A DNA stretch of 32,000 nucleotides from Candidatus Thorarchaeota archaeon. Its GTDB lineage: Archaea; Asgardarchaeota; Heimdallarchaeia; Hodarchaeales; Hodarchaeaceae. Under the pieces are notes generated by a model. That model made no database searches. It saw only the letters and a list, made by a program, of their open reading frames with translations, and had not been told where the DNA came from. Positions 6,812-29,526 of the stretch are shown in pieces. Numbering within the stretch: the stretch's first letter is position 1; each line of letters opens with the position of its first letter. Both the position numbers and the translations under genes were made by a program. The stretch covers positions 90,001 through 122,000 of the forward strand of contig JBHLRO010000007.1 of NCBI GenBank assembly GCA_048882505.1, in the 5' to 3' direction.

Positions 6812-8230
6812 CTATATATGGATTGCTCTACCCAGTGCATCTAGTGTGGCCTCCTTAATCGTCTCATTAAGGACTGGGTGCCCATGTTCTACCTTAATTA
6901 GATGTTCTGCTTCCATATGATTTGCCACTGCTAGCGCAGCCTCAGCAATCAACTCTGTAGCTTGCGGGCCGATGATATGCACACCAATAATAACCTTTGA
7001 CTCCTTATCCAAAAGTACTTTAACAAAGCCTCGATTTTCACCAGTAATAATTGCCCTACCAGATCCTACAAAGGGAACCTTACCTATTAAAATGGATTTG
7101 TACCTTTTTAATGCCTCTTCTTCCGTAACACCCACCGAAGAAACCTCAGGATCGGTAAAGATTACGCTCGGGATTGCGTTATAGTCCATCTCGGAATTGT
7201 GACCGAGGATGTTTTCTGCCGCCACTTCGCCTTCATGATACGCAGTATAGGCCAGCATGGGAGAAGGAACGCCCTGGACAACGTCCCCTATCGCATAGAT
7301 TCCAGATACATTTGTTTCCATTCTGTTGTTGACGATAACGCCCCGATCATAAGCCACGCCCGTTGAGTCGAGACCCAGCCCTTCAATAACGGGCGCTCGG
7401 CCGATCGATACCAGGACATAATCCGCCTCTTGGTGGTGCTCGGTTCCACTACTATCTATAAAACTTACCCGTTTATTCCCCGATGGCGTATCGGAGATTC
7501 GAGTGACGCGTGATCCCGTATGACACTTAATGCCTACCCTTGTAAAGGCATCTTCGAGTTCTCTACTCAAATCGTGATCCTCCATGGGGATTAAACGCGA
7601 CAACATCTCGATAATTGTGACATCTGTTTCTTCAAAACAACGAAAAATGCACGCAAATTCCCCACCAATGACTCCTCCCCCAATTACTATCAAACTCTTC
7701 GGAATAGCATTTAGTTCCAAAACGCTTTCGCTCGTAAGAACTTTGGCTCCTTCAATTCCAGGTATCGGAACAAACGCTGGTTTACTACCAGATGCTATGA
7801 TGATCCCTTTTTTTGCGATAACACGATAAGCTTCCTCAATCCCATACCCTTTAACTTCAACGGTTCTGGCATCAATGAAACTTCCCTGCCCCTTTATGAC
7901 TGTAATACTGTTCTTTTCCATCAAGAACTGAATCCCTTTAACCATCCGTCGAACAATCAATCGCTTACGTTTCTGGATTTTCTGGAAATCGACACCTAAA
8001 TAGTCCGCCTTTAAACCAAATCTTGAGATCTGCCTCAGGGCCTTACATTTTTTTGCTGACTCTACCAAAACTTTGGTAGGAATACAACCTCTATTCACGC
8101 AGGTTCCCCCAAGATCTGCCTTTTCCACAAGAACCACCTGAGCATTTAACTGGGCCGCTCTAATTGCAGCCACATATCCACCTGGACCGCCCCCTATGAT
8201 AATGATGTCCGTTTCAATTTCGTCAGCCAT
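6812..8230 (-). CDS. lpdA: Dihydrolipoamide dehydrogenase (E3 / GCS L protein)
   Basis: GGGPGGY FAD motif, GGTCVNRGCIPTK redox disulfide, GGGVIG NAD motif and C-terminal HPVLNE His-Glu pair. No N-terminal HMA domain or C-terminal CC, so not MerA. Confidence 0.95.
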   Translation of the reverse strand: MADEIETDIIIIGGGPGGYVAAIRAAQLNAQVVLVEKADLGGTCVNRGCIPTKVLVESAKKCKALRQISRFGLKADYLGVDFQKIQKRKRLIVRRMVKGIQFLMEKNSITVIKGQGSFIDARTVEVKGYGIEEAYRVIAKKGIIIASGSKPAFVPIPGIEGAKVLTSESVLELNAIPKSLIVIGGGVIGGEFACIFRCFEETDVTIIEMLSRLIPMEDHDLSRELEDAFTRVGIKCHTGSRVTRISDTPSGNKRVSFIDSSGTEHHQEADYVLVSIGRAPVIEGLGLDSTGVAYDRGVIVNNRMETNVSGIYAIGDVVQGVPSPMLAYTAYHEGEVAAENILGHNSEMDYNAIPSVIFTDPEVSSVGVTEEEALKRYKSILIGKVPFVGSGRAIITGENRGFVKVLLDKESKVIIGVHIIGPQATELIAEAALAVANHMEAEHLIKVEHGHPVLNETIKEATLDALGRAIHI

Positions 8231-13892: not shown

Positions 13893-14444
13893 TTAAGAAG
13901 AAAATCCATCGTGGCTCGCGTGCTCGACAAAATAGGTAAGAATATCACGGATATTCACAACCCGCAATGGATCCTCACGGATGATTGCATAACTGTAATC
14001 TCCAAGATACATATGATGTAGTGCATGAGCTACAGAGTCTGTCTTTTCTAAAATAACTGGATTTTTCAGCATAGCGTCTTTAATGGGTTTATCAATATCT
14101 ATGGGGGACTCATTACATACACGGACTACTAGAGAGCGTTCGGTAAAGATCCCAACTATCTTGTCATCATCATCGACAATAACTACTGAACACTTGCGGT
14201 TTTCACGCATCTTGTTGATCACTTGTCGAACTGGCATATCAGGGGGAACCTGGAAAGCAATAGATCGCTCGCCGCCAATTTCTGTAAGTTTATCCTCGGC
14301 GATCGCCCTACCAAGTTCGTCCTTATACTTGTCACCAGATTTCGTACGCCAGAGGTGTGAAATATCGGTCCCGCAATTAATACACTCCGTTGAACCCTCG
14401 ATGTTGGAATAACGACATTGGGGGCAGATTATGGCAGGAGTCAT
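13893..14444 (-). CDS. Double zinc-ribbon plus CBS-pair protein
   Basis: CPQC...CINC at the N-terminus, then CBS features (SVVIVDDDDKIVGIFTERSL, SVAHALHHMY); GAGG RBS. Confidence 0.85.
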   Translation of the reverse strand: MTPAIICPQCRYSNIEGSTECINCGTDISHLWRTKSGDKYKDELGRAIAEDKLTEIGGERSIAFQVPPDMPVRQVINKMRENRKCSVVIVDDDDKIVGIFTERSLVVRVCNESPIDIDKPIKDAMLKNPVILEKTDSVAHALHHMYLGDYSYAIIREDPLRVVNIRDILTYFVEHASHDGFSS

Positions 14445-14515
14445 AAGTATTCCTCAAAACTTTGATGCTCATTTTAATTGAAAGAGTTCTAATATAGTTT
14501 ATCCTAGTGTAATTA

Positions 14516-15550
14516 CTATTCCACTACCCACGTTTCTCCTTGTTCCATGAGATCCTGAACTGATTGCTTTGTACCGTTCTTGGCCGTTTTTACTTGTTCG
14601 TCAAGCATGCTGTCATAAGTAGGTTTTTCAAGCGCCCTAAAAACCCCGATCGGTTCGGGAAAGTTGGGATACCGCATTCGAGAAAGGAAAAAGGCCAATG
14701 TTGACTCTCGGGCATATTCATCGTGGTACAAAAGATCTTTTTCTGAAAATCCCGTATCCTTAAACTTAATGACTTTAGGTTGAAGTCCATGTAAGAAAAT
14801 ACCTTTGTCTCGGTCTTTTCCAAATACCATTGGTTCTCCGTGACGCAATTCAAGAATATTATCATATCGAAGTTCTTTGTCAGTGGCAAACGCGAAGGCG
14901 CCGTCATTAAAAATGTTGCAGTTCTGATAAATCTCGACGAATGCTGTCCCCCGGTGTTCTGCTGCACGTCTGAACGTTTCCTGCATGTGTTCACCATATT
15001 GATATATGGTTCGTGCTATAAAAGTTGCCTCCGCTCCTAAAGCCCATGATATTGGGTTGACAGGATAATCAATGGTACCACTGGGCGAGGATTTTGTTTT
15101 CTTACCCAATTCACTCGTAGGGGAATATTGGCCCTTAGTTAGACCGTAAATTTTGTTGTTAAAGAGCAGAATCTTAATATCTACGTTCCGTCGCATGGCG
15201 TGCATCAAATGGTTTCCACCGATCCCAAGGCCGTCTCCGTCGCCAGTTATTACCCAAACAGAAAGATCGGACCGAGTAATTTTCAGACCTGTAGCGATCG
15301 TGGGGGCCCTACCATGAATGGTGTGCATACCATAAGTATCCATGTAATAAGGGAACCTAGAACTGCACCCAATTCCACTAATAAAAACGATTTTCTCTTT
15401 CCGAAGATTCAATTTTGGAAGAATTTTCTTCATGTATGCGAGAATGCCATAATCTCCGCACCCAGGACACCACCGAACATCCAGATCAGAGGCAAAGTCC
15501 TTTGATGTATATAATGGTATGGTAGAATTATGTGTTGATGATTCAGTCAT
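14516..15550 (-). CDS. korB: 2-oxoacid:ferredoxin oxidoreductase beta subunit
   Basis: WCPGCGD, SGIGCSSR, HGRA, GDGD...NN TPP motif, YGLTKGQYSPT, QNCNIFN. Confidence 0.95.
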   Translation of the reverse strand: MTESSTHNSTIPLYTSKDFASDLDVRWCPGCGDYGILAYMKKILPKLNLRKEKIVFISGIGCSSRFPYYMDTYGMHTIHGRAPTIATGLKITRSDLSVWVITGDGDGLGIGGNHLMHAMRRNVDIKILLFNNKIYGLTKGQYSPTSELGKKTKSSPSGTIDYPVNPISWALGAEATFIARTIYQYGEHMQETFRRAAEHRGTAFVEIYQNCNIFNDGAFAFATDKELRYDNILELRHGEPMVFGKDRDKGIFLHGLQPKVIKFKDTGFSEKDLLYHDEYARESTLAFFLSRMRYPNFPEPIGVFRALEKPTYDSMLDEQVKTAKNGTKQSVQDLMEQGETWVVE

Positions 15551-15553
15551 TGT

Positions 15554-17434
15554 TCAGTTATCTCCTATTATTTGAAGAATCTTGTCATAAACTTCGTCTG
15601 TGTGAAATGGTCTCCCCTGGACTTTATTGATCCCTATAGCTTGAACATCTGGAAAGCGGGCACGGACCAGAACCAATAGCTGACCGAGATTTAATTCCGG
15701 TATAACGATATGTTTGTAGGCTCGTAGAACCTCTCCGAGGTTTGAAGGGAATGGATTGATAAATCGCAGGTTAGTATCTGCCACATCATAACCCTCTTCC
15801 CGTAACCTCGTCCCCACCGTGTGTGTTACCCCAAATGTGGATCCCCAGCTTAAAATAAGGAGATCCCCTTGTTTTGGCCCGTTTACTTGCTGAGGCGGGA
15901 TTTCTTGGGAAACTCTATCTACCTTTTCAGCTCGTGTCCGAACCATACGCTCATGATTCAACGGATCGTAACTTACATTTCCTGTTTCGGGATCCTTCTC
16001 TAGACCCCCAATTCGATGCTCCAGGCCTGGAGTCCCAGGGATAGCCCAAGGTCTCGCAAGGGAATCAGGATCCCTCTGCCCGTAGGGGAGGAAGGGAATA
16101 TTCTGATACGCGTCTTTAGTGGGATGATCGAAAACGAAACCTGGATATGTACTCAGTCTGGGGATTTTCCACGGTGCTATGTTATTGGCCAGATATCCGT
16201 CTAGAAGCAGGACGACTGGGGTCATGTACTTCATTGCAATTCGAATGGCCTCAATTGCCATATCGAAGCAATCGCTTGGAGTTTGAGGAGCCAATACAGG
16301 GGCGGGGGATTCCCCATTTCTACCGTACATTACCTGTAATAGGTCGGCCTGCTCATTTTTGGTGGGCATCCCCGTGCTTGGACCGGCCCGTTGAACATTA
16401 ACCACTATAAGTGGAAGTTCAGTCATAACAGCAAGCCCAAAAGCTTCTGATTTTAAACAAAAGCCAGGACCTGACGTTCCAGTTATTGCAATGCTCCCAC
16501 CGAACGCCGCTCCAATAGCCGCACCAATCGCTGCAATTTCGTCTTCTGCTTGAAATGTTCGAATCCCAAATCCTTTATGGTTAACCAATTCGTGAAGAAG
16601 ATCGCTGGCGGGAGTAATGGGATATGCTCCGTAAAAGATCTCTTTCTTTGCAAGTTGAGTCGCAGCAATAAAACCCAACGCTAATGCCTGGGTTCCCGAG
16701 ACGTATCTATAAAGCCCTGGTGTCATTTCGGCTTGTGGAACTTGATATTGAACCTTCCAAAACTCATTGGTCTCCCCATAATAATAGCCAGCCTTCAAGG
16801 TTTTTATATTTGCTTCCACAATAGCCGGTCGCTTCTTAAATTTCGTTTCCACCCATTCTATTGTAGGCTCCAATGGACGATCGTACAACCACGAGATAAG
16901 CCCTAAGGCGAAAAAATTGCGAGTCAAGTTTACTTGCTTTGTTTTGAGACCAACTGATGCGACGGCTTCCTCATTCAATGAAGTGATCTTAACTGGATAA
17001 AGACGATATTTATCCAAAGAACCGTCTTCGAGAGGATTGGAGGAATAGCCAGCTTTTGAAATATTATTTTTTGTAAAAGTATCCTGATTGATGATTAATA
17101 TTCCATTAGGCTTCAAATCTGAGACGTTCACCTTCAGCGCAGCAGGATTCATGGCCACAAGGGCGTCTAGAGCATCTCCGGGAGTATAAATCAATGATGA
17201 TGAGAAATGTACCTGAAATCCTGAAACACCAGCCAGAGTGCCAGATGGTGCTCTAATCTCTGCAGGAAAGTCTGGAAGCGTGGAAACGTCATTTCCAAAG
17301 ATCACAGAGGCGGTTGTAAACTTCAATCCTGCTAGCTGCATCCCATCTCCACTGTCGCCTGCGAGTCTGATAACGACTTGATCTAGTTGTTTCGTGGTTT
17401 TATCCACATACGAGCTTTCTTTTACTTTTTCCAT
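15554..17434 (-). CDS. korA: 2-oxoacid:ferredoxin oxidoreductase alpha subunit (fused gamma-alpha)
   Basis: AGDSGDGMQ, FPAEIRAP, YPITPASD, QAEDEIAA, TSGPG, QRAGPSTG, HRIGGLEK. Confidence 0.95.
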   Translation of the reverse strand: MEKVKESSYVDKTTKQLDQVVIRLAGDSGDGMQLAGLKFTTASVIFGNDVSTLPDFPAEIRAPSGTLAGVSGFQVHFSSSLIYTPGDALDALVAMNPAALKVNVSDLKPNGILIINQDTFTKNNISKAGYSSNPLEDGSLDKYRLYPVKITSLNEEAVASVGLKTKQVNLTRNFFALGLISWLYDRPLEPTIEWVETKFKKRPAIVEANIKTLKAGYYYGETNEFWKVQYQVPQAEMTPGLYRYVSGTQALALGFIAATQLAKKEIFYGAYPITPASDLLHELVNHKGFGIRTFQAEDEIAAIGAAIGAAFGGSIAITGTSGPGFCLKSEAFGLAVMTELPLIVVNVQRAGPSTGMPTKNEQADLLQVMYGRNGESPAPVLAPQTPSDCFDMAIEAIRIAMKYMTPVVLLLDGYLANNIAPWKIPRLSTYPGFVFDHPTKDAYQNIPFLPYGQRDPDSLARPWAIPGTPGLEHRIGGLEKDPETGNVSYDPLNHERMVRTRAEKVDRVSQEIPPQQVNGPKQGDLLILSWGSTFGVTHTVGTRLREEGYDVADTNLRFINPFPSNLGEVLRAYKHIVIPELNLGQLLVLVRARFPDVQAIGINKVQGRPFHTDEVYDKILQIIGDN

Positions 17435-17467
17435 TATATTATTGCCATCCGATGCATGTATCGTGCA

Positions 17468-17947
17468 TTAAGCTCCTTCTCGAGTACCAGGGGGACTCAT
17501 ACCAGGTAGAACCGTAAATACACTATCCGCGTAATAGTCAATTAAATAATATATGAAATCTCGGGCAGCTACTACGCCGATCAGCTTTCCTTTCTCCATG
17601 ACCGGCATGTGATCGTACTTTCCTCCCTCGTACATCGTCATTACGAGTTTAGATATTGAATCAGTACTTTCAATGGTAGTGAAATCGACCTCCATAATCG
17701 AACTGGCGAGGGCATCCTCCCTTAGTTTGCCGGCTGCTGCCCATCTTAATATTGACCTTTCCGTGATTAATCCTTGAATCTGCTCTTTAGAATCGACTAA
17801 GCATACATAATCTGTCTCTCGTTCCTTGAGCGAGTCTAAAGCGTCCCTTATTGTTGCTGTTTCAACATTTAGGGTTCTTAGTTTTGTTCGAATCAGCCTA
17901 GAACACTGATCTATCTTAAAAAGCTTAATTATGTCCTGATCTGACAT
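17468..17947 (-). CDS. CBS-pair protein, first gene of the kor operon
   Basis: YVCLVDSKEQIQGLITERSI and HMPVMEKGKLIGVVAARD. The likely start is ATG 17947; the track extends to 18106 through AT-rich promoter-like sequence. Confidence 0.85.
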   Translation of the reverse strand: MSDQDIIKLFKIDQCSRLIRTKLRTLNVETATIRDALDSLKERETDYVCLVDSKEQIQGLITERSILRWAAAGKLREDALASSIMEVDFTTIESTDSISKLVMTMYEGGKYDHMPVMEKGKLIGVVAARDFIYYLIDYYADSVFTVLPGMSPPGTREGA

Positions 17948-18162
17948 GGTCTGTCCCACGATTAGAAAATAAAATGCATTTGATAAAATTTTTTCTGATA
18001 TATTCGTTGCAATTGACGAATTTGCAAACCACCGAAAAAGAGCCCTCTGTAATCGAGTAACAGAGGGATTTTTTCTATCATCCTTCAAGGAAACGTTAAT
18101 TATCAAGTAACTAATAATAAGACAGAATAAGTTCTATCACGAAAGTTTATCTGGCCGTTGTA

Positions 18163-20430
18163 TTGGGATTCGGAATGAACTGGAATATTCTGCTTGCCTA
18201 TTTCAATTCATTTATGGCGGCAATCGGTACAGGAATTACTTTTACTGCCTTCTCCGTATTTATCACGCAAACTTTGGGTTTACCAAATCTTGTCCTTGGG
18301 AATCTGTTTACAATTGCAGGATTAGCCTCAACGATCTTCGTATTTCCTTCTGGCTACCTAGCCGATAAGTACCGGAGAGACATTCTCATTCGGTTATCGG
18401 TACTTTTTCTATTTATGGGCCAGATATTGCTTATTACATCAACAACTCTAATCGGTTCTCCAGAAACCGCGTTAATTGCTTTGATAGCGAGTCGTTTTCT
18501 TGATGGTATGGGGTGGGGATTATCTGGACCAGCTGCCCAAGCTCTTATAGCTGACAGTCTTGAAGCCGGTAATAGATCACATGTATACGCACGGATGCAT
18601 TTTGTGAACCTTGGGGCATCTGCCATTGGCCCTTTTCTAGCTATTGGACTAACATTAATCTTTGGTGATACCTGGGCCATCGGAACTCTTCAGAATTTGA
18701 TCATAATAGGTGCTATTGCATCTATATTTGGAATTCTCTCGTTGGGACTCATGAGCGATGATCAGGCGGTAACTTCAAGACTGGAAATCCCCTCCCAAGA
18801 CAAGCAGATAGAGAAAGAACCAGTAATTGCCACGGTGTTCGGTCGAGAATTCTCATACGATGTTGTCATTCCGAGTGTTATCGTAATTTCGGGGATAATT
18901 ATAGGATTTGGTGCTGGTGCAACCGTGGCGTTCTTTCCCGTGCTTTTCGCAGATCCTCACATTGGTTATGGATTAAAACCTTTGTTTACTTACACAATTA
19001 TGGGCATAACCAGCCTTGTAACCGGATTTGCTGGAATTATGGCCCAGAAATTGATACAGAAGACAGGTAGGATCGGCAGTATGTTTTTGGTTCAAGGCCT
19101 AGCTATATTGTGTCTCCTTGGGTTAGTCATTAATCTCGTTTTGTATCAAGGAGGTACTATTCTCTTTGAAACATCAGTGCTTATACTTGTCTTCTTTTAT
19201 ATATCACGTAATTCGTTGATGAATGCTAGTGGCCCAATTTCTCGATCAATCGTTATGGACGTAGTTCCCTCCAAGGACAGGGGAAAGTGGAATTCGTTAG
19301 AAACATTGGCTTGGGGCATGTTCTGGTCTGTTTCAGCCTCTATTGGTGGATTTGTTGTCGATACGTTGGGTTTTTTGTACGTATTCGTATTTACCGCGAC
19401 ATTATACTCCATAGCAACCCTAGTATTGCTCACAATTAGAAAGCGTGTTCCTAAGGAGTCTGTTTTATCCCGTACATATCAGATTGGAAGACTTTCAACC
19501 CGTAATCGTGTTGTTATGTCATCTAATACTTTGAATGGCAGTCTAAAACCTGCAGATCATGCGGGTCAATTAAAACAGGAGACTATCTCTTTTTATGCCA
19601 ATGTTTCTCAAGGAGGAGTCGGATTAATCTGTTTACAGCCTGCTTATATCTCTAATTCTGGTAAACAGACTGTGAATCAGTTGGGAATCCACGAAGATTA
19701 TTGTATTCCACGTTTACAGGAATTAGTGGAGCATGTGCACCAGGATGGCGCTTTAATAGGAATTCGTATCACGCATGCCGGAGCAGCAACGCGAAGGTCA
19801 ATAACTGGGTCGGAACCGTTATCAGCTTCCAGCATTCAAATACCTGGTTATGATCCTCCTCGCGCGCTTGAATCTGGGGAATTACTGGAAATCAGACAGG
19901 AATTTGTGAATGCCGCCCATAGGGCCGTCGTTGCCGGTTTTGATGTAATCGAACTGTCATCATTTTTCGACCCAAATCAAGTACCAGATTTGTTTACTCA
20001 GTTTCTTTCTCCTAAATTTAATAAACGAACAGATAAGTACGGTGGATCATTTGGAAACAGAATGCAGTTTCCTTTGGAAGTAATAAAAGATATAAAGTCA
20101 TCCCTTCCCCCATCCGTGATGTTAGCGTTTTATGTTTGTGTTCCTACGCACGAATTGGTATTGGATGAACTTATTGAATTCGTTGGCTCTCTTTGCTACT
20201 CGGGAATTGAGATCCTGGGCTTAGATTTTGTAGATCGGTTGATAGAACAAGAAGAATCTATCGAATTAATAAAGAGAATACGAAAAGAATTTCCTGCTTT
20301 AGCCCTAATTTTTAGCGGGGATTTTGATGTGAGAAGCGGAGAAAACGCCATTAAAAAAGGTCAGGCCGATCTAATTGGCTTTGAAACTTTGCTTCAACGA
20401 GACGCTTCATTTCCCAATGCTTTACGATAA
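18163..20430 (+). CDS. MFS transporter fused to a degenerate NADH:flavin oxidoreductase (Old Yellow Enzyme) TIM-barrel domain
   Basis: About 430 aa of hydrophobic helices with MFS motif A (SGYLADKYRRD, QKTGRIG), then OYE landmarks IGRLSTRNRVVM, GGVGLI, THAG, AGFDVIE, QFLSPKFNKRTDKYGGSFGNRMQF and ADLIGF in one continuous ORF. Alternative ATG at 18175. Confidence 0.9.
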   Translation: MGFGMNWNILLAYFNSFMAAIGTGITFTAFSVFITQTLGLPNLVLGNLFTIAGLASTIFVFPSGYLADKYRRDILIRLSVLFLFMGQILLITSTTLIGSPETALIALIASRFLDGMGWGLSGPAAQALIADSLEAGNRSHVYARMHFVNLGASAIGPFLAIGLTLIFGDTWAIGTLQNLIIIGAIASIFGILSLGLMSDDQAVTSRLEIPSQDKQIEKEPVIATVFGREFSYDVVIPSVIVISGIIIGFGAGATVAFFPVLFADPHIGYGLKPLFTYTIMGITSLVTGFAGIMAQKLIQKTGRIGSMFLVQGLAILCLLGLVINLVLYQGGTILFETSVLILVFFYISRNSLMNASGPISRSIVMDVVPSKDRGKWNSLETLAWGMFWSVSASIGGFVVDTLGFLYVFVFTATLYSIATLVLLTIRKRVPKESVLSRTYQIGRLSTRNRVVMSSNTLNGSLKPADHAGQLKQETISFYANVSQGGVGLICLQPAYISNSGKQTVNQLGIHEDYCIPRLQELVEHVHQDGALIGIRITHAGAATRRSITGSEPLSASSIQIPGYDPPRALESGELLEIRQEFVNAAHRAVVAGFDVIELSSFFDPNQVPDLFTQFLSPKFNKRTDKYGGSFGNRMQFPLEVIKDIKSSLPPSVMLAFYVCVPTHELVLDELIEFVGSLCYSGIEILGLDFVDRLIEQEESIELIKRIRKEFPALALIFSGDFDVRSGENAIKKGQADLIGFETLLQRDASFPNALR

Positions 20431-20449: not shown

Positions 20450-20839
20450 TCAACTGGTACAATACGTTTCATATTCGTCAGCATTCATCAATTTCGCAAG
20501 ATCCTCTTCCAAGTTTGATGGCCGAACGCGGACAAGCCATGCACCATAAGGATCTGAATTAGTCAATTCCGGAGAGTCCTCAACCTCGTCATTAACCTCC
20601 ATGACTTCTCCTGATATTGGCGAATGGACATCAGATACAGCTTTTACTGATTCAATTGCTGCAAACACTTCTCCCTGGGTTATTGTATCCCCGACTTCAG
20701 GAAGTTCAACCATGACGACATCCTTTAAAGCTTGTTGGGCAAAATCCGAAATCCCAATCAAACATGTTCCATCATCTTCAACTCTGCACCATTGGTGCTC
20801 CTTATAGTATTTTGCAGACTTATCGTATTCATAAGACAT
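20450..20839 (-). CDS. gcvH: Glycine cleavage system H protein (lipoyl carrier)
   Basis: EHQW, GISDFAQ, ESVKAVSD lipoyl lysine, SPISGEV, NSDPYG-W; GGAG RBS. Confidence 0.95.
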   Translation of the reverse strand: MSYEYDKSAKYYKEHQWCRVEDDGTCLIGISDFAQQALKDVVMVELPEVGDTITQGEVFAAIESVKAVSDVHSPISGEVMEVNDEVEDSPELTNSDPYGAWLVRVRPSNLEEDLAKLMNADEYETYCTS

Positions 20840-21589
20840 TACAACATTCTCCTTGGAAAACCTTCCTGGTCATCTAATGATAGGACGCTAGAAAGTTGTA
20901 AATCGGATAAAATCCTTTTTTTTTAAGTCTATTGGCGCGAGACCTATATCAGTGGTAATCCATTTCATTATAGTGATAAAATAGTCGAATAGAGAAAACT
21001 TAGTTTAATTCTGTCCGATATCGGAATTAAAAATCCAGAGGTTTAATCTTAATGGCTGGCAGCATGCCATCCATCTTTTCTGAATTCTAGGATTGGATCG
21101 AATAATGTCTTTTCTTTCTCAATAAGAATAGCCACGGAATTACCAGAAAAGCTAATCCTTCACAGAACTAGCGGGACGAGGTATGTCAAAACATATCAAA
21201 AAATCGAAAGTTTAAACTTACAAAATTCACCAATAGGAATTCAATGACTTTGGGGCCATTTTCCGCCTTACGAACACAAAATTGGAGTGGTGTCGATTCC
21301 AAATTATCATATGAGTTTTCCAATTTAAATAATTTAATTCATAATTATCGTTATTTATCGCAAATAAAAAATGAATCGTTCGTTGATCGCTTATTCACTC
21401 CAATGTGTTCACGAAATAGTTGTCAGGGGCGGATGGACCAATTAACAATAATAAATTCCGGAAAAAAACGAAAAAAGAGAAAAAGGTCAAGTGCCATACG
21501 AGTACACGGAATTTCCTATATCTTATACCAGAGGAAATCCCTATAAATAGCTCAGAAGTGCTCGACAGTCTCTTAAATTGGGATTATTT

Positions 21590-22231
21590 ATGAGTACACA
21601 AGTATATGAGTTGAATGATGAAAGTCAAGCTTTTCGTAACGAAGTTGTTGAAGAAGAGGGGGGCCACCACCTTAAGAGCTGCTTTCAGTGCTCATCCTGC
21701 TCTTTAGCGTGTCCTGTGGCCGAAGTTGGTGTTGATCTGCATCCTCGTCGTGTTATTCGCCAGATTCTTTTTGGCTTAAGGAAAGAGGTTTTACAAAGCC
21801 CGGAAATTTGGAAATGTGTCGGATGTTTTGAATGTACAGACATGTGTCCCCAGAACGTGCGTTTCACAGAGGTGATAGAGGCCCTCCGACGGATAGCCAT
21901 TCGTGATTCTAAGCATGATAATAAGAATCACCGAATAACATTACCCAAGGAAGCGGTTTTAAAACACTCTTTTGATAAAAGGTTCAAGGAAAGCGTATGG
22001 TTATGGGGACGGACTTGGGAACCTGGAATGATCGGTCGGTACTTCTTATATGGACGGGGTTTCCCCTTTGGGGCCTTGATTGGATTTAAGTATCTATCAA
22101 TGATTCTAAACTTACTTGCCAAATTTAAAATTGAATTCCTCCCGCCCCGAACTGGAGAGACACGCAAAGAAGTTCGACGTATTTTCGCAAGAGCCAAAGA
22201 AATACAGAACGGTAAGGGGTCTTCATCATGA
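21590..22231 (+). CDS. hdrC: Heterodisulfide reductase subunit C-like 2x[4Fe-4S] protein
   Basis: CFQCSSCSLACP and CVGCFECTDMCPQ. ATG 21590 (track start TTG 21578); TATA-like CTATAAAT at about 21541. Confidence 0.9.
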   Translation: MSTQVYELNDESQAFRNEVVEEEGGHHLKSCFQCSSCSLACPVAEVGVDLHPRRVIRQILFGLRKEVLQSPEIWKCVGCFECTDMCPQNVRFTEVIEALRRIAIRDSKHDNKNHRITLPKEAVLKHSFDKRFKESVWLWGRTWEPGMIGRYFLYGRGFPFGALIGFKYLSMILNLLAKFKIEFLPPRTGETRKEVRRIFARAKEIQNGKGSSS

Positions 22232-23127
22232 AGATAGCGTACTATCCTGGTTGTTCATTGCATAAGATGGCAAAGGAATATAATAAATCTACATACAAAG
22301 TTTCTAAAGCTCTTGATCTCGAGCTGGAAGAACTAGAGGGGTGGAATTGCTGCGGAGCAATGGAAGTTAGCGCTATTGATCCCCTGGCTGCTGATGGCAT
22401 TGTAGCGCGTAATTTGGCCTTGGCCGAAACTCAGGGCTATAACGATCTCATGGCGGTCTGTCCAGCCTGCTCTCATAAATTAATCTCAGTCAATCGAAAA
22501 ATGGAACTTAATGATGCGAAGGCAGAGGAGATTAATTCGCTTCTGGACCGTTCGTATACTCCTGGTGCAGTGAATCCAATCCATTTTCTGCAGGTTCTCA
22601 AAGACAAAATCGGTTTAGATAAAATAAGGCAGAAAGTTCTTCCAGGAAATCCGCTTGAGGGAAAAAAAGGAGTATCTTACTATGGATGCCTCTGTACTAG
22701 ACCAGGGGACGTCATTCAGTTTGAGGATCCAAACAACCCAACGTTTATGGATGATATTCTTCGCGTAATCGGAGTTGAAGTTCCACATTTTCCCATGAAA
22801 ACCAAGTGTTGTGGAGCCACGCAACTCATGGTGAACAAACCCTTGGTTGAAAGTCTTACAGGGAATATCTTATTAAATGCCCATGATGTAGGTGCTGAAT
22901 TTGTTGTCGTCGCCTGCCAGATGTGTGCACAGGCCTTGGATGGCCAACAGAAGCAATCTCTCAAGCGTGTAGAAGCCAAGAATGTTAAGCTTCCTGTGCT
23001 ATACATATCTCAAGCCTTGGGTATTGCGATGGGTATGAGCTACGGTATGTTGGGTTTGGGTTCCAATTTCGTTTCGCCCAAAAGGCTTCTTGCGCGTAAA
23101 TCAAACGGAGGCACAGGAACAAAATGA
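22228..23127 (+). CDS. hdrB: Heterodisulfide reductase subunit B
   Basis: YYPGCSL, WNCCGA, CPAC, YYGC, KCCGA, ACQMC (two CCG domains); ATGA overlap with hdrC. Confidence 0.93.
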   Translation: MKIAYYPGCSLHKMAKEYNKSTYKVSKALDLELEELEGWNCCGAMEVSAIDPLAADGIVARNLALAETQGYNDLMAVCPACSHKLISVNRKMELNDAKAEEINSLLDRSYTPGAVNPIHFLQVLKDKIGLDKIRQKVLPGNPLEGKKGVSYYGCLCTRPGDVIQFEDPNNPTFMDDILRVIGVEVPHFPMKTKCCGATQLMVNKPLVESLTGNILLNAHDVGAEFVVVACQMCAQALDGQQKQSLKRVEAKNVKLPVLYISQALGIAMGMSYGMLGLGSNFVSPKRLLARKSNGGTGTK

Positions 23128-24260
23128 CATTATCAGGCCAATCTCCCTCTGGGTTTCTTCCATTGGATACATCCGATCCGATGTCTGTTATTTATGCATG
23201 TTATCAATGTGGGTCGTGTACAGGGGTATGTCCTCTACGTAAAGTCTCACAATACAATCCACGTGCCATCATTCATGCTTCTCTTCTGGGCCACTCTTTG
23301 TCAGAGGATGATCTAACCGATTGCCTGACTTGCCGTCAATGCTACGAAGTTTGCCCTCAACAAATTGATTTTCCTCTCTTTATCCAAAGTCAACGGGCCC
23401 AGCTTGGGGTTAACGAACAGAACTTCGCCCATCATAACATCTTCAATCTTCTCCAAGATATGCAAAGTAAAAATAGTGAGAAAGGGATGGAATTCGAGTA
23501 TGAAGGAGATCTCAATCCTGAAGGGAATATTGCCTATTTTCCTGGTTGTATTGATTTGTTTGATCGTTTACTAGACCTTGAGCAAGTGGACTTCCATCAG
23601 ATAGGTCAAAGCGCAATCAACCTTATCAATAAGGCTGGAATAGAGCCAAACCTTGTTTCTCTGAAATGTTGCGGCCATGATGCCTTTTGGAGCGGAGACA
23701 ATGAATCTTTTAAGAAAATACGTTCCTATAATGAGAAGATCCTAAAAAAATCAGGAATAGCCATCCTCATTTTGTCATGTGCCGAATGCTACTATTCATT
23801 CAAAGAACTATATCAGCTTGACAACATCACAATCCAGCATATTTCAGAATTTATTGTAAAAAATTCTGATAACTTCTCAAAAGGAGATATGGAGCCCGCA
23901 ACCGTAACCTATCACGATCCATGTAGATTGGGACGCTATTTGGGTGAATATGACAATCCTCGTGAGGCTATCAAGGGTATCGATGGCATTACGTTTACCG
24001 AACTCCCAAAAAATCGTGGTTCTACTCAATGTTGTGGAGTTTCGGCATGGATGAAGTGTGATGACAAATCGAGATATCTTATGCTTCAAAAACTAGAAGA
24101 AGCAACAAAGACAGGTGCGTCTACGCTAACAGTATCCTGTACTAAGTGCTTTGCTCATTTAAACTGTGTTCTGCACGATAAAAAACCACAACACAATTTT
24201 GATATTCAGATCAAGGAGCTGGGAACCCTTGTGGACGAAGCAATCCCGCGGGTGAAATAA
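23124..24260 (+). CDS. HdrD-like fused HdrC-HdrB (Fe-S)-binding protein
   Basis: CYQCGSCTGVCP, CLTCRQCYEVCP, then YFPGC, KCCGH, SCAEC, YHDPCRLGR, QCCGV, SCTKC; ATGA overlap with hdrB. Confidence 0.88.
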   Translation: MTLSGQSPSGFLPLDTSDPMSVIYACYQCGSCTGVCPLRKVSQYNPRAIIHASLLGHSLSEDDLTDCLTCRQCYEVCPQQIDFPLFIQSQRAQLGVNEQNFAHHNIFNLLQDMQSKNSEKGMEFEYEGDLNPEGNIAYFPGCIDLFDRLLDLEQVDFHQIGQSAINLINKAGIEPNLVSLKCCGHDAFWSGDNESFKKIRSYNEKILKKSGIAILILSCAECYYSFKELYQLDNITIQHISEFIVKNSDNFSKGDMEPATVTYHDPCRLGRYLGEYDNPREAIKGIDGITFTELPKNRGSTQCCGVSAWMKCDDKSRYLMLQKLEEATKTGASTLTVSCTKCFAHLNCVLHDKKPQHNFDIQIKELGTLVDEAIPRVK

Positions 24261-24262
24261 TC

Positions 24263-27200
24263 ATGGTTACCATTACGCAGGAAATTCCTCAATCTTCAAC
24301 GAAACTGGGATCTGTTTTAGTCATTGGTGGAGGAATCGCAGGTATCCAAGCATCACTGGATCTAGCTGAGCAGGGATTCCTGGTTTATTTAATGGAAAGT
24401 AACCCCTCCATAGGGGGTCGGATGGTTCAGTTAGATAAGACTTTTCCTACTCTTGATTGCGCTATGTGTATTCTGGGCCCCAAATTAGTTGATGTAGAAC
24501 GCCATCCGAATATTAAACTCTTGACTTATTGTGATCCCATTAGCTTAGCAGGAGAACCTGGAAATTTCGAAGTGCGCTATTTAAAGAAAGCACGGTATGT
24601 TGATGAGGAAAAGTGTACCGGCTGTGGAGTATGTCAAGATAAATGTCCTGAATGGATTTATGATGATTTCAATGCTGGCTTGACTAGAAAAGATAAACGC
24701 GGCCGAATTCGTCAAGGCCGTAAAAATATCTCAATCCCATTTCCTCAGGCCGTTCCGAAAATTGCTTACCTTCAACGTGATACTTGTCGGTGGTTTACTA
24801 AGGGAAAATGTCAAATCTGCCTAAAATTATGTGGCCCCGGAGCAGTGGACTACGAACAGAAAGACGAGGAAAAGACCATCAATATCGGTGCAGTAATCGT
24901 TACAACGGGATTTGATCCATTTGATGTTAGAACACTCCCGAGTCTTCACTTTGAGGACTTTGCCAATGTTGTAACAACACTCCAATTTGAACGTTTGCTC
25001 AGCGCAAGCGGCATCACAGAGGGAGAAGTTATTCGGCCTTCAGACGATGAACATCCAAAGAAAATCGCTTTTCTACAATGCGTGGGGTCACGGAATACAA
25101 CCCTAAACAGAGATTATTGCTCTGCTGCCTGTTGTATGTTTTCGGTAAAAGAAGCGATAATGGCAAAGGAACATGACCCTGATGTCGATGCTTATGTTTA
25201 TTATATCGATATCAGAGCCTTTGGGAAGGGATTTGAAGAATTTTATAAAAGGGCAAAAGATGAATTCGGAATTAAGTTTATTAAGTCACGTATCAGAGAA
25301 CTTAGAGAAATCTCAGGAAATAAGAACCTTATCATAAAGTATGAAGATTTTTCAGGACCTAATCCTGTCATAAAAGCAGATGAAATGGATATGGTTGTTC
25401 TTTCAACTGGATTAGATCCATCGTCCCGAAGGAAATTTTTAAACTCATGTCTAAGTCTTGAGCTTGATCGTTACGGATTTGTCCAAACAAATCCGTTGAC
25501 ACCTCTAGAAACAAATCGAGCAGGGATTTATGTTTGTGGGGTAGCCTCAGGGCCCAAAGATATCCCTGATACCGTTGCCCAAGCGAGTGGTGCGGCAGCA
25601 AAAGCAGCTATCTTCTTAAAAGAGGTGAGAGGAACTGAAATTGAGGAGGTCAAACTTCCGCCGCCAATCCCAGTTAGTTCGATGGATGAACCTCGTATCG
25701 GGGTTCTCATTTGCCATTGTGGACATAATATAGCTTCTGTTGTTGATGTCGAAGCGGTCGCGGAATACGCCAGATCATTCCCAAATGTGGTATTCGCAAC
25801 AGATCCCATGTATGCATGTGCAGCCGATACTCAGGTCTTAATTCGAGAAGCCATCCAAGAACATCAACTAAATCGTGTTATCGTGGCCTCGTGTACCCCA
25901 AGAACTCATGAGCCCCTTTTTAGGAGCACTCTTAAGGAAGTTGGACTAAATGAATTCTTGTTTGACCTGGTGAATATTCGAGAACAGGTGTCGTGGGTCC
26001 ATCCTGACGCGGGAGAGATGGCGACCGAAAAGGCGAAAGACCTTGTGCGTGGGGCTATTACACGGGCCAATCGTTTGGAACCCCTATTTAAGGAGAAAAT
26101 AACGATTATCCAGAAATCCCTGGTGATCGGGGGTGGTGTCGCAGGTATGACGTGTGCCCTTGATCTGGCACGAGCAGGATATCCCGTATATTTGATGGAA
26201 AAAGAAGATCAACTGGGAGGGGAGCTCCTTAGAGTCCCTGATCTTCATAATGGATTAAAAGGACCAGAAATTGTCGCTAACCTCGAAACCCAAGTTCGGA
26301 ATGAACCTAATATCACTGTATTTACAAATGCAAGGCTAGAGGATGTACGTGGAACTGTGGGTAACTTCAAAGCTTTAGTTCAAGGTACAGAAATTGATTT
26401 TGGTGCTGTCGTTCTCGCCACAGGAGCAAAGCCTTTTGAACCACACGGCTATTACCACTACGGTATAAATCCCAACGTTATCACCCAACGAGAACTGGAA
26501 ACGCATTTTGATGAATTTTCCCCCAATACGGTTGTAATAATCCAATGCGTCGGAGCCAGAGAACCAGATCCCCCCAGAACTTACTGCAGCCGTATTTGCT
26601 GTACTACTGCAATTAAAAACAGCATTCGAATTAAGGAACGCAACCCCAACACCAATGTGATAATTCTCTACAAAGATATCCGCACATACGGCACCCTAGA
26701 AGAACTATATCGGAAATCACGACAATTAGGGACGATATTCATTCGTTACACTGATGAAGATACCCTGCAGGTAAGTGAGAAGGGAGAAATTGAAATTTAC
26801 GATAATATGCTAGGAGCCAAGATACGAATCAACCCGGACCTAATTGTTCTGAGTACTCCGCTAATTCCAAATCCTAATGAAGACCTTGCCCAGACATTCA
26901 AAGTACCTCGAGGTAATGATGGATTTTTCTTGGAAGCGCATGTAAAACTTCGTCCTATCGACTTTGCCACCGAAGGTGTATTCTTAGCGGGCACTGGACA
27001 TTATCCGAAATTTTCTTCGGAGGCAATTTTCCAAGGCAGTGGAGCTGCTGTTCGAGTCATGGCTTTATTATCACAAGGCTACATTCTTTCTGAGGGTGCC
27101 ATCTCTGAAGTTGATCAGTCCATCTGCCGTGGCTGTGGGCGCTGTGAGCTTGTCTGTCCGTTCAATGCTATCCAAACGGAGGTCAAGTTAATAGATCTAG

Positions 27201-27388
27201 AAACTCAAACAATCCAGACGATTAAAGCAAGCATAAATCCGGCTGTATGCAAAGGATGCGGCATTTGTGTGGTCACTTGCCCTGTTAGTGCCATCACAGT
27301 GAAACATTTCCATAAAGAAACCATTGAAGCCCAGGTGAAATCCATTCTTCTGAAACCAGAGGAACTAGTTGCCGAGGAAATATCCTAG
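24263..27388 (+). CDS. hdrA: Large heterodisulfide reductase subunit A with tandem-duplicated FAD modules
   Basis: GGGIAG and GGGVAG FAD motifs, DKTFPTLDCAMC, two CVG-x-R...YCS-x-x-CC motifs, CHCG...SCTPRTHE, and inserted and C-terminal ferredoxin motifs. Confidence 0.95.
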   Translation: MVTITQEIPQSSTKLGSVLVIGGGIAGIQASLDLAEQGFLVYLMESNPSIGGRMVQLDKTFPTLDCAMCILGPKLVDVERHPNIKLLTYCDPISLAGEPGNFEVRYLKKARYVDEEKCTGCGVCQDKCPEWIYDDFNAGLTRKDKRGRIRQGRKNISIPFPQAVPKIAYLQRDTCRWFTKGKCQICLKLCGPGAVDYEQKDEEKTINIGAVIVTTGFDPFDVRTLPSLHFEDFANVVTTLQFERLLSASGITEGEVIRPSDDEHPKKIAFLQCVGSRNTTLNRDYCSAACCMFSVKEAIMAKEHDPDVDAYVYYIDIRAFGKGFEEFYKRAKDEFGIKFIKSRIRELREISGNKNLIIKYEDFSGPNPVIKADEMDMVVLSTGLDPSSRRKFLNSCLSLELDRYGFVQTNPLTPLETNRAGIYVCGVASGPKDIPDTVAQASGAAAKAAIFLKEVRGTEIEEVKLPPPIPVSSMDEPRIGVLICHCGHNIASVVDVEAVAEYARSFPNVVFATDPMYACAADTQVLIREAIQEHQLNRVIVASCTPRTHEPLFRSTLKEVGLNEFLFDLVNIREQVSWVHPDAGEMATEKAKDLVRGAITRANRLEPLFKEKITIIQKSLVIGGGVAGMTCALDLARAGYPVYLMEKEDQLGGELLRVPDLHNGLKGPEIVANLETQVRNEPNITVFTNARLEDVRGTVGNFKALVQGTEIDFGAVVLATGAKPFEPHGYYHYGINPNVITQRELETHFDEFSPNTVVIIQCVGAREPDPPRTYCSRICCTTAIKNSIRIKERNPNTNVIILYKDIRTYGTLEELYRKSRQLGTIFIRYTDEDTLQVSEKGEIEIYDNMLGAKIRINPDLIVLSTPLIPNPNEDLAQTFKVPRGNDGFFLEAHVKLRPIDFATEGVFLAGTGHYPKFSSEAIFQGSGAAVRVMALLSQGYILSEGAISEVDQSICRGCGRCELVCPFNAIQTEVKLIDLETQTIQTIKASINPAVCKGCGICVVTCPVSAITVKHFHKETIEAQVKSILLKPEELVAEEIS

Positions 27389-27416
27389 ATAATTAGTAGA
27401 AAATGGTAGAATCCCT

Positions 27417-27851
27417 ATGACTGAAGCACAAACCCTATCTATGCAAAGTAGATTTGAACCCAAGATCATTGTGTTCGCCTGCAACTGGTGTTCATATGCA
27501 GGCGCCGACATGGCAGGTGTCTCCCGTTTTACATATCCAGTAAATGTCCGTATCGTTCGAGTTATGTGTACAGGACGGATCGACCCGTCGTTTATTATTA
27601 AAGCATATCTGGACGGCGCAGATGGGGTACTTGTTGCAGGTTGTCATCCAGGGGATTGCCATTATCTTGAAGGAAATCTACGAGCTAAGAAACGTATAGA
27701 CAATACGTTAGAAGTGTTGAAAATTCTTGGATGGGAAGTAGATCGATTAAGATTGGAATGGATATCAGCTAGTGAGGGCAAGCGTTTCTCCCAAGTGATG
27801 ACTCAATTCACTGATCAGGTTCGGGCGCTTGGAGCAATTTCCCTTGAATAA
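27417..27851 (+). CDS. mvhD: MvhD-type [2Fe-2S] hydrogenase/Hdr iron-sulfur subunit
   Basis: FACNWCSYAGAD, RVMCTGRID, GCHPGDCHY, LEWISASEG. Confidence 0.95.
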   Translation: MTEAQTLSMQSRFEPKIIVFACNWCSYAGADMAGVSRFTYPVNVRIVRVMCTGRIDPSFIIKAYLDGADGVLVAGCHPGDCHYLEGNLRAKKRIDNTLEVLKILGWEVDRLRLEWISASEGKRFSQVMTQFTDQVRALGAISLE

Positions 27852-28065
27852 GTCCCAACTGTTCTTTTATATCCATGGTTTTTAATGGAAGAAATCATTT
27901 TTCGAAGAAATATCTTCTAAATACTTTCAAAAGAAATCAAAGGATGCGAAGTACAATCGCTTTCGCTTGGTTCTTCTCTTTTATTAGAGACTTTGCTCGT
28001 CAAAAACAATGGAACTGAATGATGCCGTCTTTGAAAGTCTTTATTGCTATGTGGTGTTCATAAAG

Positions 28066-29526
28066 ATGCGTATACTCCTTGTTGTTCCTCCTGGTTTGGA
28101 TGGGAATTATATTACCAAGTATCACGCTTCTTCTTTTCTGAATTTCACTGCACCCCCTTTGGGGCTGGCCTACATTGCCGCCGTGTTAGAAAAAAACGGT
28201 TATGACCCTCAAATATTAGATTGCAAGGCACTAGGATTAACTTTTCAAGAATATAGGCGCTTCGTAAAACGAATAGATCCTGATTTCGTTGGGATACAAG
28301 TTTTAACCGTCAATATCTATGATGCATTACGATCGGCCCAAATCTCAAAGGAAGAAGGAGTCAACTACGTGGCATTTGGAGGATATCACCCAACAAATAT
28401 GCCCGAAGAATGTCTTGAAATGAGTAATGGTAATGTAGATGTTGTATTTCGTGGTGAAAGCGAATACTCCATTCTTGAATTCGTAAATTGCATTGAAAAT
28501 GGCAAAAACTGGCACGAAGTCCCCGGAATATCCTATAAAAGTGGGAAAAGCGGAGACACTGAAGTAATAAAACATAATCCCCAACCTCCATTAATCAAAG
28601 ACATCGATAGTTTGCCTTTCCCAGCCCGACATTTGCTCCCTATGGATCGTTATCGCGTCTTTGGTACGTCCTTTCCAGCTACTACCTTGGTTACTTCACG
28701 TGGTTGTCCGTATAAATGCGATTTTTGTGCCGTTACCGCTTTTTATAATGCACGATGGCGACCCAGATCACCTCAAAATATTAGAGAAGAGATGGAACTG
28801 ATACGTGATGATTTTGATCTAAAAGCGGTTGCCTTTGTCGATGACCTCTTCTTCATGTCCAGAAAACGGATCAATCGAATTTGTGAGGAGTTTCTTCGAG
28901 AAAAATTGGATGTTTACTGGGGAGCAACCACCAGGCCCGAAAAAAGCGATTTAGAGCATTTGAGTTTGATGAGAAAGGCGGGATGCAGACTTGTGTTTGT
29001 TGGAGTGGAGTCAGGCGATCAGACCATCCTAGATAACATCACAAAGGACACCACTGTTTCTCAAATTGAAAAATTCTTTGTAAACATTAAAAAATCAAGA
29101 ATGGATTCGTTAGCATCCGTCTCTTTTGGTTTTCCAGGGGAGACCCGTGAAACAGTGATAAATACCGTTAATTGGGTTACTGATGTCTTGGACCCTTCCC
29201 TTGCGGTCTTTACCGTCGCGACGCCGTATCCTGGAACGCGATTCTATCATCAAGCTTTAGCAGAAGGCTGGATCAAGGAAAAAGATTACAGTAAATATAA
29301 CTTATTTACTCCTGTCATGGATACTACCGGATTAACCCGCGAAGAACTAAAAGAACTCACCAAATGGGCTTACAAGAAGTTTTATCTTCGCGTAAGCAAA
29401 GCTATGCAGAACACAGCTCGTGAATTTCGATATTCACTTGAGAGTTATGGTCTTAGAATGTTTTTGAAGAATTCTATTTTCTTTGCAAAAGGCCTTGTGA
29501 ATATGCGGCAGATCGCTGCCCTGTAA
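28066..29526 (+). CDS. B12-binding-domain radical SAM protein (class B methyltransferase-like)
   Basis: PPLGLAYIAAVL, GGYHPT, TSRGCPYKCDFC, GVESG, GFPGET, TPYPGT. ATG 28066 with GTGGTG RBS (track start 28009). Confidence 0.93.
   Translation: MRILLVVPPGLDGNYITKYHASSFLNFTAPPLGLAYIAAVLEKNGYDPQILDCKALGLTFQEYRRFVKRIDPDFVGIQVLTVNIYDALRSAQISKEEGVNYVAFGGYHPTNMPEECLEMSNGNVDVVFRGESEYSILEFVNCIENGKNWHEVPGISYKSGKSGDTEVIKHNPQPPLIKDIDSLPFPARHLLPMDRYRVFGTSFPATTLVTSRGCPYKCDFCAVTAFYNARWRPRSPQNIREEMELIRDDFDLKAVAFVDDLFFMSRKRINRICEEFLREKLDVYWGATTRPEKSDLEHLSLMRKAGCRLVFVGVESGDQTILDNITKDTTVSQIEKFFVNIKKSRMDSLASVSFGFPGETRETVINTVNWVTDVLDPSLAVFTVATPYPGTRFYHQALAEGWIKEKDYSKYNLFTPVMDTTGLTREELKELTKWAYKKFYLRVSKAMQNTAREFRYSLESYGLRMFLKNSIFFAKGLVNMRQIAAL

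Follow-up and report, generated by a model that had tools for sequence, protein, structure and literature searches.

A canonical H-protein gene linked to a type II HdrA/HdrD/MvhD gene cluster in Hodarchaeales, and a possible role of its lipoyl group as Hdr partner

Which molecule is the partner of the heterodisulfide reductase (Hdr) complexes of Asgard archaea? These complexes are encoded by some of the most highly expressed energy genes of the group and their disulfide substrate is explicitly described as unidentified (PMC11291895). The question takes a concrete form in a 32,000 bp stretch of DNA (the window; G000:C7:90001-122000) from a 4.3-Mb archaeal metagenome-assembled genome of the order Hodarchaeales that is 94.5% complete. 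A gene coding for a glycine-cleavage H-protein (gcvH) is found there head-to-head with the genes hdrC-hdrB-hdrD-like-hdrA-mvhD (Table 1). The genomic linkage between the two is well supported by the analysis reported here, while a mechanism in which the lipoyl group of the H-protein serves the Hdr complex is plausible but unproven. Elsewhere in the genome, genes for G1P dehydrogenase, FttA and a Ras-family GTPase are consistent with an Asgard archaeon. Genes were identified by ORF calling and profile searches of the window using curated equivalog cut-offs. Numbers in the style of G001 designate related genomes, C a contig and L an extracted locus; GcvH#1 is the H-protein encoded in the window. 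Profile matches recovered the divergent gene arrangement described in the initial annotation and, in agreement with it, identified no gcvT, gcvP, mcr, mvhAG or fdh among the window genes. The hdr genes either overlap by 4 bp or are spaced by 2–28 bp, and are therefore considered to form one operon.

Orthologues of GcvH#1 (66–93% identity) and of the HdrD-like protein (56–97%) are encoded 0.2–5 kb apart in 16 loci from 15 genomes of a single GTDB genus. The same gcvH-hdr arrangement is present in one metagenome contig from the protein collection. Four genomes that carry both genes are uninformative due to contig ends (G005, G011, G017) or to a stitched record (G015). The invariant core of the locus is gcvH / hdrD-hdrAA-mvhD, where hdrAA is the fused hdrA, and it occurs in at least four gene-order variants. 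Variant A, the one of the window, includes hdrCB. Variant B has two additional 340-aa HdrA-like flavoproteins. Variant C is devoid of hdrCB and features hdrD-hdrAA-mvhD followed by the gene of a full-length QmoC-like membrane protein (166 bits, ~5 predicted helices). In G021 gcvH is found after mvhD on the same strand. A further recurrent neighbour is p717, a 717-aa protein combining a five-helix QmoC/HdrE-like membrane domain with a TfrB/HdrD-like Fer4+CCG module; its gene flanks gcvH#1 in G012, G007 and G002, is the first gene of the operon in G009 (L018:12329-14482) and G011, and is located on another contig in G000 (C4:65926-68091). The outer flanks of the locus are replaced. The fused MFS-Old-Yellow-Enzyme (OYE) ORF of the window is kept in 1 of 15 loci, 2-oxoacid:ferredoxin oxidoreductase (OFOR) genes lie within 10 kb of gcvH#1 in 6 of 15, and the B12-binding radical SAM gene is retained in none of the 11 loci extending past the cluster. 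The region between gcvH and the hdr operon spans 189–660 bp in the relatives. Inspection of these divergent intergenic regions from 14 loci revealed no common palindrome, only conservation among close relatives and AT-rich TATA-like stretches.

The phyletic distribution was surveyed in the whole order as represented in the collection, 24 genomes of which 22 belong to the genus and two to a sister family. Nineteen genomes carry both GcvH#1 and the cluster (19/24 of the order; 19/22 of the genus) and no genome has only one of the two. Neither was found in G006, G008 and G010 of the genus nor in either genome of the sister family. The case of G010 (87% complete, 20 contigs) is informative: gcvT, gcvPA and GcvH proteins of two other types (#2 and #4, see below) are present, GcvH#1 and the cluster were not found, and GcvH#1 therefore tracks the Hdr cluster rather than the glycine cleavage genes. 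The gcvH-hdr adjacency is more than chance. Its conservation, combined with the joint presence and absence of the two partners, supports a functional link between GcvH#1 and the Hdr module.

Table 1. Features of the window relevant to the gcvH-hdr locus (coordinates within the window).
Feature	Position	Strand	Description
gcvH (GcvH#1)	20450-20839	-	canonical-type glycine-cleavage H-protein, 129 aa
divergent intergenic region	20840-21577		738 bp, 35% GC; promoters of gcvH and of the hdr operon presumed
hdrC-like	21578-22231	+	2x[4Fe-4S]; TIGR03290 83 bits; Fer4_17/Fer4_8 matches
hdrB-like	22228-23127	+	PF02754 twice; two CCG domains = non-cubane Fe-S cluster site
hdrD-like	23124-24260	+	fusion of HdrC-type ferredoxin and HdrB-type 2xCCG; Fer4 + two CCG domains
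fused type II hdrA (hdrAA)	24263-27388	+	1041 aa; NF040770 977 bits
mvhD	27417-27851	+	[2Fe-2S] electron-transfer subunit; PF02662 177 bits
lpd	6812-8230	-	stand-alone dihydrolipoyl dehydrogenase; TIGR01350 506 bits (cut-off 409)
CBS protein, OFOR beta, OFOR alpha, CBS protein	13893-18106	-	TIGR03710 638 bits, TIGR02177 253 bits

The cluster codes for a non-methanogenic flavin enzyme of the Hdr type that is soluble and consists of two different CCG modules, a type II HdrA and MvhD. Residues 1-271 of the HdrB-like protein align with HdrB of PDB entries 8RVV and 8RVU (E 2e-36), an alignment that covers the full length and in which both CCG motifs are kept. The HdrD-like protein has two CX2CX2CX3CP ferredoxin motifs and two CCG motifs whose cysteines (C26/29/32/36, C67/70/73/77, C142/182/183/219 and C267/303/304/339/342) are invariant in 21 sequences; it is the sole CCG subunit common to all cluster variants. 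MvhD orthologues are found in all variants (68–80% identity). No transmembrane segment was predicted in the HdrC-like protein and the whole cluster is predicted to be soluble. The initial annotation listed an hdrA; this gene is indeed present and, according to alignments to PDB chains and of its two halves to each other, it is a fusion of two unlike HdrA modules. Three alignment stretches connect it to chains 8RVU_a and 5ODC_A. Residues 18-454 correspond to an HdrA core that lacks the N-terminal domain and carries the inserted ferredoxin as well as the Cys194/Cys197 motif. In residues 473-1032 a second flavin module is flanked by the N-terminal Fe-S domain and by the C-terminal 2x[4Fe-4S] domain; the inserted ferredoxin is missing from this half, as is Cys197. 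Glu356 and Lys409 have equivalents in both halves. Type II HdrA proteins are defined by two thioredoxin-reductase modules, both with the Glu/Lys pair at the flavin (PMC12054007), and the protein of the window has these features. That a single-chain pseudo-dimer is combined with HdrCB and HdrD-like, two different CCG modules, suggests that the complex is asymmetric. No match to mcrA (PF02249) was obtained in the 94.5%-complete genome (genes for the biosynthesis of coenzyme M (CoM) and coenzyme B (CoB) were not looked for), and the heterodisulfide CoM-S-S-CoB is therefore an unlikely substrate.

The only two [NiFe]-hydrogenase large-subunit genes of the genome are found 13-21 kb downstream (C7:131.3-132.6 and 138.1-139.4 kb). 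Two further Hdr modules enclose both of them (G000:C7:131336-144060, 13-26 kb downstream), and in G004 the gcvH-linked cluster is directly adjoined by one of these modules (L021:749-4399). The Qmo-like, membrane-anchored version of the complex (variant C) occurs in at least five relatives (e.g., L017:16311-17531, L112:1363-2595). Some relatives (G006:C1:1270554-1273523, G008:C24, G017:C107, G005:C2), though not G000, have a second type II fused HdrA paralogue (46–47% identity); in the copy of G006 the reading frame is interrupted by three stop codons (one TGA and two TAA). The hydrogenase maturation gene hypF immediately follows gcvH#1 in G009 (L018:17605-19992), an assignment based solely on ORF length and position. 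Of two metagenome contigs (L111:5305-7689, L112:8551-10935), one has hypF in this same place and the other a few kb further downstream.

GcvH#1 is a clear member of the H-protein family (TIGR00527 150.4 bits for a cut-off of 115.85; NF002270 163.9 bits for a cut-off of 117; PF01597 148 bits). Its lipoyl-lysine, K66 in the sequence IESVKAVS (ESVKA motif), is invariant in 18 orthologues, and thus the lipoyl attachment site is intact together with the CCG and ferredoxin cysteine ligands of the Hdr subunits. The initial annotation considered gcvH a lone gene and proposed that its paralogues be counted and that gcvT, gcvP and the lipoate ligases be located. There is no gcvT or gcvP in the window, but the genome has four GcvH-family genes, all of which keep the lipoyl-lysine. 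Single-copy gcvT and gcvPAB are found on contigs different from the one of the window (C11 and C36, respectively), and LplA-type ligase genes on C23 and C11, the latter in an E2-Lpd2-LplA operon. GcvH#2 (C11) is canonical and its gene lies between gcvPAB and gcvT in relatives. GcvH#3 (C23, L013:311-778) is divergent, has an ESNKW motif and scores below the GcvH equivalog cut-off; its gene is divergently paired with one coding for a 367-aa LplA-type lipoate ligase (L013:1028-2131), and the two look like a dedicated carrier/ligase pair. GcvH#4 (C36, L014:6673-7143) is also divergent, with an ESEKW motif and a length of 156–206 aa among proteins of its type. A #4-type gcvH is found ~3 kb upstream of gcvPAB in every genome of the genus examined (including L106-L108); it may either descend from the operonic H-protein and have diverged since, or represent a lipoyl carrier of its own. 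In other Heimdallarchaeia families the canonical gcvH belongs to a gcv(T)H-PA-PB operon, immediately upstream of gcvPA. In the phylogenetic tree GcvH#2 groups with these operonic proteins (support 92/91), GcvH#3 and GcvH#4 form a deep separate clade, and GcvH#1 defines a separate, short-branched clade that is sister to bacterial GcvHs of the Anaerolineae/Clostridia type (98/85). A bacterial origin of GcvH#1 is favoured by this tree but is not claimed here, since a single archaeal clade is not rejected by the approximately unbiased test (p = 0.12).

We propose that GcvH#1, encoded next to the Hdr complex, would serve as its partner through the lipoyl arm. In the catabolic direction considered likely, the starting point would be dihydrolipoyl-GcvH made by the P- and T-proteins of glycine cleavage. 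It would be re-oxidised at a CCG site, most likely the one of the HdrD-like protein, the invariant CCG subunit, with which GcvH#1 may make physical contact. Its electrons would join at the HdrA flavin(s) those of reduced ferredoxin, provided for instance by the often-adjacent OFOR, and would leave through MvhD. Candidate acceptors are a hydrogenase whose gene lies 13-21 kb downstream and, in the QmoC-like variants, the membrane quinone pool. The reverse direction is equally allowed: lipoyl-GcvH would be reduced by the complex and then re-oxidised by dihydrolipoyl dehydrogenase (Lpd) to yield NADH, as proposed for the sulfur-oxidising Hdr-like (sHdr) system; the Lpd of the window may be such a partner of protein-bound lipoate. 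This interpretation is put forward because of the linkage, the joint loss, the constancy of the CCG-gene neighbours, the lack of a detectable mcrA, and the precedents of sHdr with its lipoate-binding protein LbpA and of Culexarchaeia. From the gene context, we rate the chance that a CCG site has lipoyl/dihydrolipoyl-GcvH#1 as its thiol/disulfide partner as only somewhat short of even. The proposal that, in Hodarchaeales, the "heterodisulfide" used physiologically by an Hdr complex, whether bifurcating or confurcating, is H-protein lipoate is advanced tentatively, as possible though open to doubt. A structure prediction for the complex of the HdrD-like protein with GcvH#1, each supplied as an alignment, had a score of 0.00, which counts neither for nor against binding.

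Several observations weigh against this proposal. The first is energetic. The E0' of lipoamide is −0.29 V (PMC6067878) and the lipoyl disulfide would thus lie ~150 mV below CoM-S-S-CoB (value implied in PMC9012536), leaving little drive for bifurcation from H2. It is therefore plausible that a syntrophic peptide fermenter confurcates electrons from dihydrolipoyl groups and reduced ferredoxin, either to H2 when the H2 pressure is low or, with the QmoC variants, to quinone. The second is that GcvH#1 looks ordinary: it passes the equivalog cut-off and has short tree branches, and the only clade-specific residue is Cys26 (at a position that is hydrophobic in all other groups), giving no sign of specialisation; Cys127 is shared with GcvH#2 and bacterial GcvHs. 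Neither a lipoate ligase nor a lipoyl synthase gene is found beside the cluster, unlike in sHdr-LbpA loci. In three genomes that are 96–99% complete (G007, G009 and G011) only #1 and #4 are present and GcvH#1 is the sole canonical-scoring copy, so that an ordinary role in glycine cleavage suffices to explain its existence. Lpd orthologues are found in 19 of 21 relatives of the genus, so that the enzyme needed to re-oxidise the H-protein is at hand. The third is the limited reach of the linkage, which stops at the genus boundary, the sister family and other Heimdallarchaeia being without it; the 15 genomes are consequently kin rather than independent observations. A motif scan of all species genomes detected HdrD-like homologues of 34–46% identity in Bathyarchaeia, which carry the whole cluster type, Alkanophaga, ANME-1 (anaerobic methanotrophic archaea, ANME) and Methanosarcinales. 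No gene of the GcvH fold was found by BLAST and profile HMM within 10 kb of any of 30 HdrD-like loci from these groups (five of the Bathyarchaeia with a homologous cluster). Four of five Bathyarchaeia genomes do encode GcvH elsewhere, a result that we consider neutral for the lipoyl idea, which a complete lack of GcvH in these genomes would have weakened. The initial annotation had staked its case on conserved synteny and on GcvH#1 not being the single canonical copy at the service of gcvTP encoded elsewhere. The adjacency is kept through rearrangements in every informative genome of the genus, but was not found at the homologous loci of Bathyarchaeia and ANME nor in the sister family, and three genomes do have GcvH#1 as their only canonical-scoring H-protein.

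In the main rival explanation, GcvH#1 does the work of an H-protein in glycine cleavage and its gene is only co-regulated with the hdr operon from the common divergent promoter region, within a shared regulon of amino-acid fermentation and energy conservation, while Hdr uses another disulfide. The canonical equivalog score and ESVKA motif fit this view, as does the situation of G007, G009 and G011, which also encode gcvT and gcvPAB; GcvH#1 may indeed also serve glycine cleavage in several relatives. Below the orthogroup, the proteins most similar to GcvH#1 (57–58% identity) are encoded in ordinary bacterial gcv operons (gcvT-H or gcvH-PA-PB). OFOR genes of amino-acid catabolism, whose products reduce ferredoxin, often lie nearby, and Lpd is available. 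However, G010 retains gcvT, gcvPA and GcvH of types #2 and #4 yet has neither GcvH#1 nor the cluster, and GcvH#2, from its grouping with operonic copies and its position between gcvPAB and gcvT, already accounts for the vertically inherited H-protein. Co-regulation alone also leaves unexplained why genes coding CCG domains (hdrD-like and p717) are constant neighbours of gcvH#1. On balance we regard this explanation as unlikely, though a serious contender.

A second rival explanation, neutral synteny, holds that the adjacency was simply inherited in a young clade and has no functional meaning. Every positive locus comes from one GTDB genus, the sister family and other Heimdallarchaeia keep gcvH in the gcv(T)H-PA-PB operon, and homologous clusters elsewhere are without gcvH, all of which speak for it. 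It sits uneasily with a protein identity between loci of only ~56–76% and with the replacement of both flanks. The cluster was rebuilt at least four times and gcvH was reoriented in G021, yet the distance between them stays ≤5 kb, and the pattern of joint loss is unexpected under neutrality. We consider it improbable. That the locus is an sHdr-like sulfur-oxidising system in which GcvH acts as LbpA is very improbable: two CCG modules, HdrA and a lipoyl protein are found as in shdrC1B1AHC2B2-lbpA (PMC6067878), but the carrier is a canonical GcvH that groups with operonic GcvHs and is no LbpA, HdrA is a 1041-aa fusion with ferredoxin domains accompanied by MvhD while sHdrA has ~350 aa with neither, and no DsrE/TusA, sLpl(AB), LipS1/S2 or LipT genes are found among the window ORFs, so that a true sHdr assignment fails on carrier type, HdrA size and domains, MvhD and accessory genes.

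The sHdr-LbpA system of Hyphomicrobium denitrificans and Thioalkalivibrio (Cao et al. 2018, PMC6067878), in which LbpA is essential for sHdr function, is thus an analogy only, because the locus is neither an sHdr cluster nor does it encode LbpA. Both are Hdr-like enzymes with two CCG modules and an HdrA flavoprotein that are genetically tied to a lipoyl protein of the GcvH fold, and in both a dihydrolipoyl dehydrogenase may close the cycle. The cluster of the window differs by its canonical GcvH, its fused Fe-S-bearing HdrA and MvhD, by the lack of sulfur-carrier and dedicated lipoylation genes, and by its host, an anaerobic peptide fermenter instead of a sulfur oxidiser. Another precedent is the Ehe cluster of Culexarchaeia, for which the lipoyl group of GcvH was proposed as the disulfide for HdrB (Kohtz et al. 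2022, PMC9723716). There too a GcvH gene is found among the Hdr genes of a non-methanogen, but in association with a membrane group-4 hydrogenase with HdrBC, SdhA and CdhA and in a different phylum, instead of the soluble type II HdrA/HdrD/MvhD enzyme described here.

The Hdr subunits have counterparts of solved structure in the MvhADG-HdrABC complex of hydrogenotrophic methanogens (PDB 5ODC, 8RVU). HdrB, HdrC, the HdrA core and MvhD are homologous to those of the complex, and the two complete CCG motifs of HdrB, the two [4Fe-4S] motifs of HdrC and the Glu356/Lys409 equivalents are kept. HdrA is a ~650-aa single-module homodimer in methanogens whereas here it is a 1041-aa pseudo-dimer, the operon has no MvhA/MvhG genes, and it encodes an extra HdrD-like module. 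The type II HdrA/HdrD/MvhD clusters of ANME and methanogens (PMC9012536; PMC12054007) also resemble it: they code for an HdrA longer than 1000 aa with two thioredoxin-reductase modules, its halves are complementary in the loss of the N-terminal domain and of Cys197, and HdrD-like and MvhD co-occur. The nearest HdrD-like homologues outside Hodarchaeales are found in Bathyarchaeia, Alkanophaga and ANME. In ANME HdrA3/4 (Chadwick et al. 2022) the order of the halves is reversed relative to the protein of the window, where the N-terminal half has Cys197 and lacks the N-terminal domain. Further differences are that no FdhB/molybdopterin-oxidoreductase partner is found in the window or in related loci and that gcvH was observed beside the cluster in the Hodarchaeales genus alone. 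Finally, variant C of the relatives (hdrD-hdrAA-mvhD followed by the QmoC-like gene) has the domain inventory of QmoABC of sulfate reducers, while the cluster of the window has no membrane subunit, its operon is led by a CCG protein and no adenosine 5′-phosphosulfate reductase was seen adjoining.

Other genes of the window have a more restricted distribution. The gene ~12 kb from gcvH, reported in the initial annotation as a lone lpd, is a true Lpd as judged from its TIGR01350 match; its proximity to gcvH is real but is shared only with the closest relative, G016. Its assignment as MerA was prompted by the MerB-like, CopZ, HMA and ArsR neighbours and was rejected because the MerA model scores below its own cut-off while the Lpd equivalog is above its cut-off. 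Those neighbours, between 10512 and 13766, code for a metallo-beta-lactamase-fold protein, a MerB-like lyase, zf-CopZ and HMA proteins and a divergently oriented ArsR regulator, with no merA. A single 755-aa ORF (18163-20430) combines an MFS transporter with the OYE-like domain and is common only to G016. An ORF of 100 codons in the gcvH-hdr intergenic region (orf100, 21244-21546), considered as a candidate member of the operon, is probably not a gene: it is found only in G016, with 79% identity to its counterpart versus 92–98% for the neighbouring proteins, and has no family match. The B12-binding radical SAM gene (28009-29526; HpnJ/BchE-like, below cut-offs) starts 158 bp after mvhD and does not stand beside the cluster in any related locus.

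No report of a gcvH-hdr linkage in Heimdallarchaeia or Hodarchaeales was found in the searchable literature. The lipoyl-Hdr idea is already published for Culexarchaeia (2022; PMC9723716), and the partnership of a lipoyl protein with an Hdr-like enzyme is established for sHdr. The new elements are a canonical H-protein as carrier, a type II HdrA/HdrD/MvhD partner, the Hodarchaeales lineage, and comparative evidence covering the order. The comparative support, made of a whole-order survey, joint presence and absence, and a linkage kept through rearrangements, is unusually clean for a hypothesis of this kind. As an H-protein of 129 aa and a soluble complex of five genes, the two candidates are a concrete pair that can be cloned. 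Should the idea prove false, it would be a useful warning that a neighbourhood conserved within one genus is not evidence of function.

The Hodarchaeales are regarded as the order closest to eukaryotes, and the glycine cleavage system later became a mitochondrial enzyme. If the proposed role of lipoyl-GcvH is true, glycine and 2-oxoacid oxidation would be wired to ferredoxin/H2 or quinone electron flow bypassing NADH, and the glycine cleavage system would be linked to hydrogen-evolving syntrophy. It would extend lipoate as an Hdr partner from the aerobic sulfur oxidisers with sHdr-LbpA to anaerobic flavin-based electron bifurcation, and would answer the question of the Hdr partner for those Asgard archaea that make no CoM or CoB.

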